64,000 bases of DNA, from the IMG/VR virus record IMGVR_UViG_3300030104_003613; one strand, written 5' to 3'. Below the pieces are notes generated by a model. The model did no database searches and was not told the origin of the DNA. It saw only the letters and a program-made list of their open reading frames with translations. A program made the position numbers and the translations under genes. Position 1 is the stretch's first letter, and each line of letters starts with the position of its first letter. Positions 60,945-63,658 of the stretch are shown here, in pieces. This stretch comes from a virus.

Positions 60945-61136
60945 CTAATCTTCAGTAAGTGTTACCTGTTGAGAACCACAAGTACAGATATGATCAGGAT
61001 CAGAACAATCGCTTGTTTCAAAAAGACCATCAGTGTTAACCTTTCTCTTATTTCTTGGCGTTTGATTATCGTTATTAATCTCACGAAGCATCTTCTGATG
61101 CTGATCGTTTGCCAAATTATCTAGAAAGTCATTCAT
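60945..61136 (-). CDS. Small hypothetical protein with a C-terminal Cys/His cluster
   Basis: MNDFLDNLAN...CSDPDHICTC; ATGA overlap with the upstream gene. Confidence 0.65.
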   Translation of the reverse strand: MNDFLDNLANDQHQKMLREINNDNQTPRNKRKVNTDGLFETSDCSDPDHICTCGSQQVTLTED

Positions 61137-61792
61137 AATCCTGGAATGCGAGTGAGCGGTTCATTATCTAGTTGAGTTACCTCATACATGTAATCATCAC
61201 TGGTTTCAATCGTCCGGCGTCCTTCTACAGCATAGACGGTCAGATCAATCTCATAACCAGGGTTCTTTGTAATTCGTTCAAATGTCCAGGCATCATCATA
61301 CCAGATAATACGATTGTTCGGATAGGCATAGTAGTTACCATTCTCCATCTTAAAAAGGTGGGCACACTTATGCTCCGGTGTCTCCGAATAGTTCAGGTCA
61401 GGCATACCCTTATTCTCCCATGACCAGTCCATGGTGAACATATAATTACCAATTGCTTTCTTACCATCAGGACGAATTAACTCTGCCTTCAATCCTGCTA
61501 ACCTATGGCGTCTCTGAACGTCCACATAAGGCGAAAAGCAGTCCCAGTACATTGTGTCTTCTAACGGTTCTATTTCCGCATCAGGACGCCAACAGAACGC
61601 ATGTAATGGTCTCCGTGTCCAATTCACCCCATTCTCCAGGAATGCTTCAAACAGGGGAGTTCTTTTTTCAATACTCGCAACCGAATGGACATCACAACGA
61701 GTTACCTCGCCATGACCCTTCTTATGATTAAACAGAAACTCATTACGAATATAACAAGACCAATCAGGTAAACTATGATTTAAGTAAGCCAT
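61133..61792 (-). CDS. Conserved phage hypothetical protein
   Basis: ATG 61792 (TAATG overlap); MAYLNHSLP...WDCFS...EHKCAH...YPNNRIIW. Confidence 0.8.
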   Translation of the reverse strand: MAYLNHSLPDWSCYIRNEFLFNHKKGHGEVTRCDVHSVASIEKRTPLFEAFLENGVNWTRRPLHAFCWRPDAEIEPLEDTMYWDCFSPYVDVQRRHRLAGLKAELIRPDGKKAIGNYMFTMDWSWENKGMPDLNYSETPEHKCAHLFKMENGNYYAYPNNRIIWYDDAWTFERITKNPGYEIDLTVYAVEGRRTIETSDDYMYEVTQLDNEPLTRIPGL

Positions 61793-62274
61793 TAGTGCCA
61801 AATAACGTGATTGTTTTTAAATTTAAAAGTTTTGGTTACATCTGCAACCTCATACCCTTGAAGTTGTTTCTTATAGGGCATCGCAGGACCGAGATAATAA
61901 TAATCATATCCCAGTCTTTTGTAACGTGCGATTTCACTTCTGACAGATTTATTACCTATCCTTAATTCAGGATTAAGATAGTCCCAAGCGAAATAACTGG
62001 TATACAGTGAATTTACACTTGGTAGTTTCCAGATAACAGAGAATGCACAGAGACGATTGTCCTTATCAGTATAACCTATTCTTTCAGCAATATCAAGTGA
62101 AAACTCCTCCTTGAAGAGGGGAATCATATCACCAAATTGTTTGTATTGACAATACTTGATATAGATCTGAACACACTCCTCATATGCATCAGGTTCTAAT
62201 AAAACATAATTTGTCTCCTTGTAGTTCGTATCTTTAAGACGAATCCTACAATCACACTCCATCTCATTAAGCAT
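61792..62274 (-). CDS. ATE/Bpt-like aminoacyl-tRNA-protein transferase (GNAT-like ATE_C domain)
   Basis: ATG 62274 (TAATG overlap). RLCAFSV..SLYTSYFAWD..LRIG..EIARYKRLGYDYYYLG..YKKQ aligns by eye with the ATE_C pattern (L.AV..D..LS.VY.F.D....LG....EI..A...G..Y.YLG..YK). Confidence 0.7.
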   Translation of the reverse strand: MLNEMECDCRIRLKDTNYKETNYVLLEPDAYEECVQIYIKYCQYKQFGDMIPLFKEEFSLDIAERIGYTDKDNRLCAFSVIWKLPSVNSLYTSYFAWDYLNPELRIGNKSVRSEIARYKRLGYDYYYLGPAMPYKKQLQGYEVADVTKTFKFKNNHVIWH

Positions 62275-62651
62275 TACCAATCCCTCTCATAAGGAGGATA
62301 GAATTGAGTCAGTTCTTCCTTTGCCCTAATATCATCCATAGCGAATAGATCATATGTTGACTTATCAAAGTATACATTAGGTGTACGAGAATGATTCACA
62401 TAGTACGCGATATCAATACGATTAATATCACAATCAATGTAAAACCCCTCATCATCATGTTGACAAAGGGATCTTAACTGCTTATGAGCAGATGAATCAA
62501 CTTCCGTCCATAAGACCTTTCTATCAATTGGTCCTTTAGATTCCGGGAAGATAATTGTATCCTTGGGGATATCCACCAAAGAGAAAACACCCACCCCGTC
62601 ACAGATTTTACTCGGTGCGAGATAGGTGTAAAGCATCCTATCGTATATCAT
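62274..62651 (-). CDS. SET-domain protein lysine methyltransferase
   Basis: SKICDGVGVFS..DIPKDT (motif I), YYVNHSRTPN (NHS motif), A.DDI...EELTQFY (ELxxxY). Confidence 0.9.
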   Translation of the reverse strand: MIYDRMLYTYLAPSKICDGVGVFSLVDIPKDTIIFPESKGPIDRKVLWTEVDSSAHKQLRSLCQHDDEGFYIDCDINRIDIAYYVNHSRTPNVYFDKSTYDLFAMDDIRAKEELTQFYPPYERDW

Positions 62652-62797
62652 CCCCTACCCTGACCCCTATAACGCTTCTTGGCGTTATTACCACTGGACG
62701 CGGAATATTTGGTATTGCGTCCACTACCCTGTCGAGTGTTCTTGGGTTGACTATCAATCAACTGCTGTCCAAACTTACCAGTCTTGATTTTTGCCAT
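62648..62797 (-). CDS. Small basic peptide (49 aa)
   Basis: Translated by hand; AGAGGA SD; MAKIKTGKFGQQLIDSQPKNTRQGSGRNTKYSASSGNNAKKRYRGQGRG; ATGA overlap with the SET gene. Confidence 0.8.
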   Translation of the reverse strand: MAKIKTGKFGQQLIDSQPKNTRQGSGRNTKYSASSGNNAKKRYRGQGRG

Positions 62798-62816: not shown

Positions 62817-63608
62817 TCAGATAACACGGGTTTTCTCGTGACCCACACGAATCCTTGGATCACACCAGATCTCATAACCCGCCTCAATAGCATCTAAACA
62901 GAATGAGACATCCTCACCACACATGTCCTGTACCGCACCAGATTCAAAGACCTGCATTTTTGGAGCGAACCATGGGTACTTCATCTTGGGATGTTCAAAC
63001 ACACCATTCTGAATCATCACCCATCCAAAACCCGTGTAGTCAACAGTGAATGGTTTCTTACGCTTACTGATACCATCAACCATCTCATGATTCATGACAC
63101 CACCATTATTACGGAAGTCATCCTCTTCCAACCAGTGTGCTACTGATGTCGTGCGACCATCCTCTGTAGAATACCACCCACCGACAATCTCGCGTTCTGT
63201 GCCGTCCGCAGTAATTGCCATATCGCACAATTGCCAGAACTTCTCTGTATTGAAGATAATATCACTATCAATCCACAACTGATAATCATACTTCAACTTT
63301 CCGTCCCATGGCAACTGATCAGGTCCACGCAGTACATTCGCACCCAAACACTTACAACGTGCGAAGTTCACCATAGAACTATAGTCCTGTGAGATCTGAA
63401 TACTCATTCCATTCTGAACCAAGTCAAAACAAAGTTGAACGAAATTCTTCATGAAAACATATGAACATCCTCTCCCAGGCAAACAGAAGACAATCGCCTT
63501 CCCTTTCATCCTTGCTTTAATTGCCTCGTAATCCCATTCTGCTTTTGCTTCGCCAGACGCAGATGCCTTTACGGGCGTCTTTGCTTTCACTGTAAATCCT
63601 TTTGCCAT
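62817..63608 (-). CDS. GT-A fold glycosyltransferase-like protein
   Basis: YDYQLWIDSD (DxD motif), TGFGWVMI, PWF, GEDVSFC, IWCDP.I.VGH. Confidence 0.8.
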   Translation of the reverse strand: MAKGFTVKAKTPVKASASGEAKAEWDYEAIKARMKGKAIVFCLPGRGCSYVFMKNFVQLCFDLVQNGMSIQISQDYSSMVNFARCKCLGANVLRGPDQLPWDGKLKYDYQLWIDSDIIFNTEKFWQLCDMAITADGTEREIVGGWYSTEDGRTTSVAHWLEEDDFRNNGGVMNHEMVDGISKRKKPFTVDYTGFGWVMIQNGVFEHPKMKYPWFAPKMQVFESGAVQDMCGEDVSFCLDAIEAGYEIWCDPRIRVGHEKTRVI

Positions 63609-63629: not shown

Positions 63630-63658
63630 ATTATAACGTGTTATATAGTCCTTGTCAA
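63630..63658 (-). promoter_or_regulatory. Perfect sigma70 consensus promoter
   Basis: TTGACA(63658-63653)-17 nt-TATAAT(63635-63630), ending 21 nt upstream of the glycosyltransferase ATG. Confidence 0.88.

Follow-up and report, generated by a model that had tools for sequence, protein, structure and literature searches.

A virus-only, ATE_C-only GNAT protein related to the core of ATE/Bpt aminoacyl-tRNA-protein transferases and paired with the uncharacterised family p222

In this work, we describe a 160-residue ATE-like protein (P0001) encoded on the minus strand at positions 61795..62274 of a 64,000-nucleotide viral DNA stretch, IMG/VR record IMGVR_UViG_3300030104_003613 (referred to below as the window). 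We found that this protein belongs to a virus-only, ATE_C-only clade of the ATE/Bpt superfamily, which consists of the bare GNAT core and is paired with an uncharacterised protein family, p222. Its homology to the ATE/Bpt core is close to certain. We read it as an active transferase of aminoacyl groups, probably arginyl, whose acceptor is not the classical one, and we give this reading a probability of roughly 0.55. The window itself is a fragment of a marine T4-like cyanomyovirus carrying the baseplate genes gp25 and gp6 and giant structural proteins of 4084 and 2535 residues, and its nearest DNA matches are the Synechococcus phages Bellamy and S-B05 (~78-80%).

The gene was defined from the open reading frame listing and its translation, together with Pfam, dN/dS and model data. 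It starts with an ATG at 62274 and stops at 61792-61794 on the minus strand. An alternative TTG start lies at 62280; the ATG is supported because homologues of 71% identity open with the same MLNE..DCRIRL. The protein begins with MLNEMECDCRIRLKDTNYKE (also given as MLNEMECDCRIRL) and includes the internal segment RLGYDYYYLGPAMPYKKQLQGYE and the GYDYYYLG...YK motif. A first-pass annotation had described a 160-residue frame with a short C.C-RI.L start and an ATE_C-like core ending G(Y)DYYYLG...YK, and the translation agrees with it exactly. The C.C pair is present locally (C7 and C9), but neither cysteine is conserved across the family, so this start is not a metal site. Compared with a copy of 99% identity the dN/dS ratio was 0.012, and for copies of 92% and 72% identity it was 0.06. 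Therefore, the gene is under strong purifying selection and is not a chance reading frame.

For the family assignment, the Pfam scan of P0001 returned ATE_C as its sole match, covering residues 67-143 with a score of 29 bits (E 1.8e-6; gathering threshold 25 bits). The same scan yielded no match to ATE_N at E values up to 1, nor to acetyltransferase, FemAB, LPG_synthase_C or Leu_Phe_trans (PF03588) models. Thus, of the two Pfam searches proposed in the first-pass annotation, the one for ATE_C succeeded and the one for ATE_N came back empty. The NCBIfam match named "arginyltransferase" stayed below threshold, PHROGs has no family for the protein, and one identical copy carries the name "arginyltransferase" from the JGI pipeline. 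A profile built from 17 short homologues matched only ATE1 chains in the PDB (E 7e-6). With profiles enlarged by longer viral relatives the E values fell to 3e-11 and 6e-11, and ATE1 remained the sole significant family. The 150 best profile matches included no canonical Bpt, and all 20 long matches tested carried ATE_C only, with ATE_N found in 0/20. The ATE_C match and the ATE1-only PDB matches bear out the proposal that the phage encodes a minimal relative of the ATE/Bpt transferase core.

The residues that matter for catalysis in ATE1 were then mapped by HMMER alignment to Kluyveromyces lactis Ate1 (PDB chain numbering = native + 4) and compared with published mutagenesis (PMC9351520). Conservation was counted over ~164 family representatives (50% clusters), with the short forms (134-176 residues, including P0001) and the viral long forms (225-275 residues) counted apart. 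Y134-K135 (codons 61870..61875, minus strand) correspond to Ate1 Y303-K304 and are retained in 69/69 short and 40/48 long forms for the tyrosine and in 64/69 and 47/47 for the lysine. W97 (61984..61986, minus strand; Ate1 W260) is kept in 72/77 short and 48/49 long forms, G107 in 77/77 and 49/49, and Y41, which aligns to Ate1 Y173, in 84/84 and 45/48. E114 (61933..61935, minus strand), equivalent to the arginine-binding E277 of Ate1 and to Gln in Bpt, is conserved in 68/74 short and 44/49 long forms. Ate1 shows exactly the same W-x9-G-x6-E spacing. In the published mutagenesis of the K. lactis enzyme, activity is lost in Y303F and K304A, E277 proves necessary for Arg, and Km rises in W260A and Y173F (PMC9351520).

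The Ate1 arginine pocket (S255, S273, E277 and Y289) aligns to T93, S110, E114 and Y126 of the phage protein. The spacing between these positions (17, 4 and 12 residues) is the same as that published for the Bpt pocket, A168, A185, Q189 and L201 (PMC9351520), which supports the alignment register. The viral T/S/E/Y set thus stands close to the S/S/E/Y of Ate1 and differs from the A/A/Q/L of Bpt, which is hydrophobic with a Gln (PMC9351520). By this alignment, the predicted donor pocket is of the ATE1 type (arginine, polar/acidic) and not of the leucine-binding Bpt type.

An AlphaFold2 model built from 90 sequences was used for structural comparison, since a 17-sequence model reached a predicted local distance difference test score (pLDDT) of only 72. 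The model shows one GNAT domain with a pLDDT of 94.7 and a predicted template modelling score of 0.87. Its elements are strand 8-12, helix 28-45, strands 63-69, 75-84 and 89-97, helix 106-120 and strand 125-130, after which Y134-K135 lie on a short helix followed by the terminal strands. Exhaustive VIA-align searches ranked FemX (Z 14.5, 147 residues), L-PGS (14.2) and MprF (14.2) at the top, with Sbb17 at Z 12.4. Foldseek placed an N-myristoyltransferase first by E value and K. lactis Ate1 highest in query-normalised template modelling score (0.65) and identity (18%). ATE1 fell outside the top 50 in both VIA-align runs, probably because of its large insertions. By inspection of the sequence, the beta4-alpha3 loop reads E-L-R-I-G-N-K-S (family K-L-x-M-G-N-I-A) and does not contain the canonical acetyl-CoA pyrophosphate motif Q/R-x-x-G-x-G/A. 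The first-pass annotation had named a best structural match to an acetyl-CoA GNAT as evidence that would refute its reading; the FemX, L-PGS and MprF folds led instead, though VipF tied with them. Taken alone, the model points to a GNAT of the aminoacyl-tRNA or tandem-GNAT type and leaves the donor undecided.

Alignment with the 225-275-residue viral relatives revealed three tiers of reduction. P0095-type proteins combine a Cys-free N-terminal domain with a basic helix (NKKQKKLLQNN) and a C-terminal extension. The basic helix has disappeared from the P0052 type, and none of the three elements is left in the short forms. Only ~9 residues precede the first core strand of P0001, and the model leaves just a 15-residue linker between strand 8-12 and helix 28-45, where the basic helix would sit. 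No separate gene for an N-domain was found in the window or in related short-form loci. In ATE1, FemX, L-PGS and LFTR, a basic helix docks the tRNA acceptor stem (PMC9351520; PMC10115844), and reversing its charge in Ate1 abolishes activity (PMC9351520).

The ATE-like gene is accompanied almost constantly by p222, a conserved viral protein of 219 residues from its ATG (61133..61792, minus strand), as established by gene call and locus comparison. In 84/91 short-form loci, p222 directly adjoins the ATE-like gene; three of the others have a different gene, protein X, in the adjoining position, and four are fragmented or incomplete. Among long-form loci p222 adjoins in 67/80, lying upstream in the same direction in 56 and convergently in 11. 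The adjacency is thus found in three different arrangements at 25-35% ATE identity. Since it survives these changes of order and orientation at such divergence, it suggests that the ATE-like function is tied to p222 as a partner, a substrate or a pathway. The dependence runs one way: both p222 and X also occur without the ATE-like gene. A predicted complex of the ATE-like protein with p222 scored 0.22 and 0.00 against a mark of 0.32, values that we weigh neither for nor against the pairing. p222 itself comprises at least 2980 clusters and has a conserved N-terminus (MAYLNH.LP) and a YPNNR motif. No Pfam family, PDB relative or informative Atlas match was found for it. The labels "PurM", "phosphoribosylaminoimidazole synthetase" and "ferredoxin" that it bears in many phage records and in phrog_3704 are unsupported: no AIRS, ferredoxin or other Pfam match was obtained.

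Protein X (~175-210 residues) carries PPCP[FY]A...LEDHP...MNxG motifs and a weak DUF6875 match, and is absent from the window. It adjoins the ATE-like gene in four non-cyanophage lineages (L098:5357-5986, L008:3463-3984, L099:2-439 and L009:3158-3691) and adjoins the long form P0052 in convergent orientation. The trio of ATE-like gene, p222 and X is present in 56 loci of cyanophage type, with X after p222 (e.g. L094:4171-4677), and X is also found in 26 GenBank cyanophage records, including S-PM2, Syn1 and S-RIM44. A possible kinship between p222 and X was dismissed, since hhalign showed none.

The distribution of the family is viral. The short form comprises 22 close clusters, with 173 representative matches at E < 1e-3 among 1.8 billion proteins, and at least 489 IMG/VR contigs contain short forms and at least 135 contain long forms. 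All ATE-like contexts examined were viral, mostly T4-like. Only three loci were found across 185,579 bacterial and archaeal species genomes, one on a 148-kb T4-like phage contig within a metagenome-assembled genome (MAG) and two on short MAG contigs. Searches by tblastn with P0001, P0017 and the long form P0095 against 50,697 GenBank phage records gave no match, and literature searches on phage ATE or Bpt turned up no paper. To the best of our knowledge, no virus-encoded aminoacyl-tRNA-protein transferase has been characterised.

The ATE-like gene lies within an apparent operon whose local order is promoter, glycosyltransferase-like gene, 49-residue basic peptide, SET gene, ATE-like gene, p222, a 63-residue open reading frame and gp25. 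A motif search upstream of the operon identified a sigma-70 consensus promoter, TTGACA-17-TATAAT (12/12; 63630..63658, minus strand). Exact copies stand before the homologous first gene in L002-L004, L015, L021, L085 and phage Bellamy. Since this perfect promoter is conserved in other lineages, the operon is probably transcribed early by the host RNA polymerase. The first gene (62817..63608, minus strand) encodes a glycosyltransferase-like protein of 263 residues (phrog_1574; weak phrog_34859). It is followed by a very basic, Gly/Ser/Lys/Arg-rich peptide of 49 residues (62648..62797, minus strand; pI 11.5) that is conserved in 75 loci, and by the upstream coupled gene for a 125-residue SET-domain protein (62274..62651, minus strand; Pfam SET, E 1e-10). 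The SET gene occurs in only 17/94 compared loci, so the basic peptide is independent of it. TAATG overlaps join the SET stop to the ATE-like start (62272..62276, minus strand) and the ATE-like stop to the p222 ATG (61790..61794, minus strand), the latter read from the sequence and the 219-residue gene call in L001.

Phages Bellamy and Sf-CH1b have the same slot without an ATE gene, which marks the ATE-like gene as an accessory insertion; its GC content is 35%, against 40% for the window. In Sf-CH1b, the same SET gene is joined directly to p222, with no ATE gene between them. The slot from the basic peptide to gp25 is a variable island that holds SET, ATE-like, AdoMet decarboxylase-like, DenV or X cassettes (L006:1550-1891; L096:4127-4672). 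No tRNA genes were found in the window, and PADLOC gave no defence-family match for the ATE-like protein, p222, the SET protein, the glycosyltransferase-like protein, X or P0095.

The protein is a stand-alone GNAT domain, a divergent virus-only member of the ATE/Bpt superfamily cut down to its catalytic core. It retains Y134-K135, W97 and Y41, whose yeast Ate1 counterparts grip the aminoacyl-A76 end and carry out the transfer. In the mechanism we propose, it would accept an amino acid (Arg or a different basic residue being the likeliest) from the 3′ terminus of a charged tRNA and pass it to an amino group of an acceptor. Because ATE_N is absent, this acceptor would not be chosen by the classical Asp/Glu pocket, and because the basic acceptor-stem helix is deleted, the tRNA would have to be held differently. 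The gene is probably transcribed early by the host RNA polymerase, and its function may be linked to p222.

A link to N-degrons had been put forward in the first-pass annotation, in which Leu would be added to N-terminal Asp or Glu in the manner of Bpt. This version is not supported, as the acidic pocket of ATE_N is absent and the donor pocket has the Glu of ATE1 in place of Gln. A phmmer search for ClpS found no ClpS or Clp gene in the window, five related viral records of 37-56 kb contained no ClpS, and among the long-form loci only 1/80 gave a weak ClpS-like match. Separately, a 45-kb UvsW-bearing viral contig, L012, carries a distant long-form ATE-like gene, p222 and a phage-encoded ClpS (Pfam ClpS; L012:2178-2465, minus strand), which lies 3.5 kb from the ATE-like gene; IMG/VR yielded nothing closely related to this ClpS. 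On the host side, cyanobacterial ClpS1 and ClpS2 bind F/Y/W and L/F/Y/V/I N-termini in vitro (PMC7966870). The control genome of Synechococcus elongatus contains ClpS and the L/F-transferase Aat and lacks ATE_N. In the established bacterial Leu/N-degron pathway, an N-terminal Arg or Lys is a substrate of Aat, so a phage R-transferase could feed the host pathway. If protein N-termini were arginylated, host Aat and ClpS could, speculatively, make degrons of them, and marking for Clp degradation would then come about only indirectly, through host Aat.

Several observations weigh against an active arginyl transferase tied to p222. ATE_N, with its zinc site and its pocket for acidic N-termini (R80, Y25 and Y87 in K. 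lactis Ate1), is absent. The helix deleted in the short forms is Ate1 alpha-3/alpha-f (K112-K123), the element that docks the tRNA acceptor stem, and the equivalent of His178, which in Ate1 contacts the C75 and A76 phosphates, varies within the family. The C-terminal region of Ate1 is missing as well, a region that is reported to be essential in yeast by a 2026 paper (PMC13592012). The tie margin of VIA-align (1 Z) takes in VipF (13.9) and another tandem GNAT (13.7), and the scores fail to tell aminoacyl-tRNA transferases apart from tandem GNATs that use acetyl-CoA. Finally, the ATE queries matched none of the 112 GenBank phage records in which p222 is present; because p222 and X (26 records) also occur without ATE, part of the adjacency may be inherited synteny.

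These gaps leave room for other explanations. The deletion of the acceptor-stem helix would suit an ordinary acyl-CoA GNAT (acetyl- or acyltransferase) of ATE descent that had lost the use of tRNA, as would the usual acetyltransferase size of a ~160-residue single GNAT, the many acetyl-CoA GNATs at Z 11-14 and the first place of the N-myristoyltransferase in Foldseek. We consider this quite unlikely, however, as no Pfam acetyltransferase model matched, the loop lacks the Q/R-x-x-G-x-G/A motif, and the Ate1-specific Tyr-Lys dyad, Trp and Glu are near-invariant, a pattern that a switch of donor would not be expected to leave. A comparably low likelihood attaches to a non-catalytic binder, which would sequester the 3′ end of an aminoacyl-tRNA or serve as a regulatory or scaffold subunit of p222 without any transfer. 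The losses of the acceptor domain and the tRNA-stem helix and the tight p222 linkage fit such a role, but the catalytic Lys and Tyr are conserved rather than binding residues alone, and one-for-one sequestration of an abundant tRNA would be costly.

Somewhat less improbable, though still unlikely, is a transferase that, like FemX, MprF or Sbb17, would draw on aminoacyl-tRNA but modify something other than a protein: a lipid, a precursor of the cell wall, a nucleotide-sugar or some other small molecule; the first-pass annotation had named a FemABX-like version as its own alternative. The top fold matches (FemX, L-PGS and MprF) and that to Sbb17, the loss of the classical protein-acceptor domain and the glycosyltransferase-like gene in the operon all lean this way. 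Yet the sequence profiles match ATE1 only, with no FemAB, LPG_synthase_C or LFTR model among the matches, and FemX and MprF need a second GNAT-like domain for their acceptor: two tandem GNAT-like domains are the hallmark of FemABX/MprF, and the window protein is a single domain. Least probable of all, and in our view very improbable, is a Bpt-like L-transferase that adds Leu to N-terminal Asp or Glu of host proteins and so makes direct ClpS degrons. Homology to the ATE/Bpt core, the long form near the phage ClpS in L012 and the ClpS of the cyanobacterial control genome would agree with it. Against it stand the missing acidic pocket, for which no separate ATE_N gene was found, a donor pocket with Glu and polar residues as in Ate1 instead of the published Gln and hydrophobic residues of Bpt, and the ClpS searches described above (none in the window or the five relatives, one weak match in 80 long-form loci). 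The arginyl-type transferase with a non-classical acceptor therefore remains the reading that we prefer.

A bolder form of this preferred reading is possible but doubtful: the virus-only mini-ATE and p222 would make up a two-gene module, widespread in marine T4-like phages, for tRNA-dependent protein arginylation (or lysylation), adding a new upstream tier to the host N-degron pathway by which early proteolysis is redirected. The hosts would be cyanobacteria that have Aat and ClpS and lack Bpt. If this were true, the protein would be the smallest aminoacyl-tRNA-protein transferase known, working with neither a built-in acceptor domain nor an acceptor-stem helix. Should the protein prove active, phages would be seen to divert charged tRNA to post-translational protein modification, and the minimal catalytic unit of the ATE/Bpt/FemX class would come down to 134-160 residues. 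Activity would also give a functional handle on p222, whose very large family currently bears the wrong labels PurM or ferredoxin, and would make the poorly understood cyanobacterial N-degron pathway testable during infection. If instead it is inactive or uses another donor, it would represent a clear case of a repurposed aminoacyl-tRNA transferase scaffold.

Compared with known systems, the viral protein belongs to the same superfamily as Bpt, the Leu-tRNA-protein transferase of ~240 residues built from ATE_N (PF04376) and ATE_C (PF04377), and shares its compact, prokaryote-style size; ATE_N with its Cys motifs is a Bpt feature that the viral protein lacks. Among solved structures, the profile reached a single family, ATE1 (K. 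lactis 7WFX, S. cerevisiae 7TIF, human 8TZV). The viral protein shares with it the W-x9-G-x6-E motif, the Tyr-Lys dyad and an arginine pocket of Glu, Ser/Thr and Tyr, as well as the GNAT core. ATE1, however, has ~500 residues against 160, and the viral protein is without ATE_N (zinc finger and the R80, Y25, Y87 pocket), the basic alpha-f, the C-terminal domain and a His178 equivalent. FemX, L-PGS and the C-terminal domain of MprF, which act on non-protein acceptors, give the best fold matches (Z 14.5 and 14.2 over 137-147 residues), but they show no sequence-level match and have tandem GNAT-like domains and a basic tRNA-docking helix. The viral long forms of 225-275 residues, such as P0095 and P0052, are clear homologues (profile E 1e-13 to 1e-23) and share the conserved residues and the p222 neighbour. 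They differ in having a Cys-free N-terminal domain of ~60 residues, absent in the window protein, and the P0095 group also has a basic alpha-f-like helix and a C-terminal "GFEWWTG..W" extension, both of which the window protein has lost.

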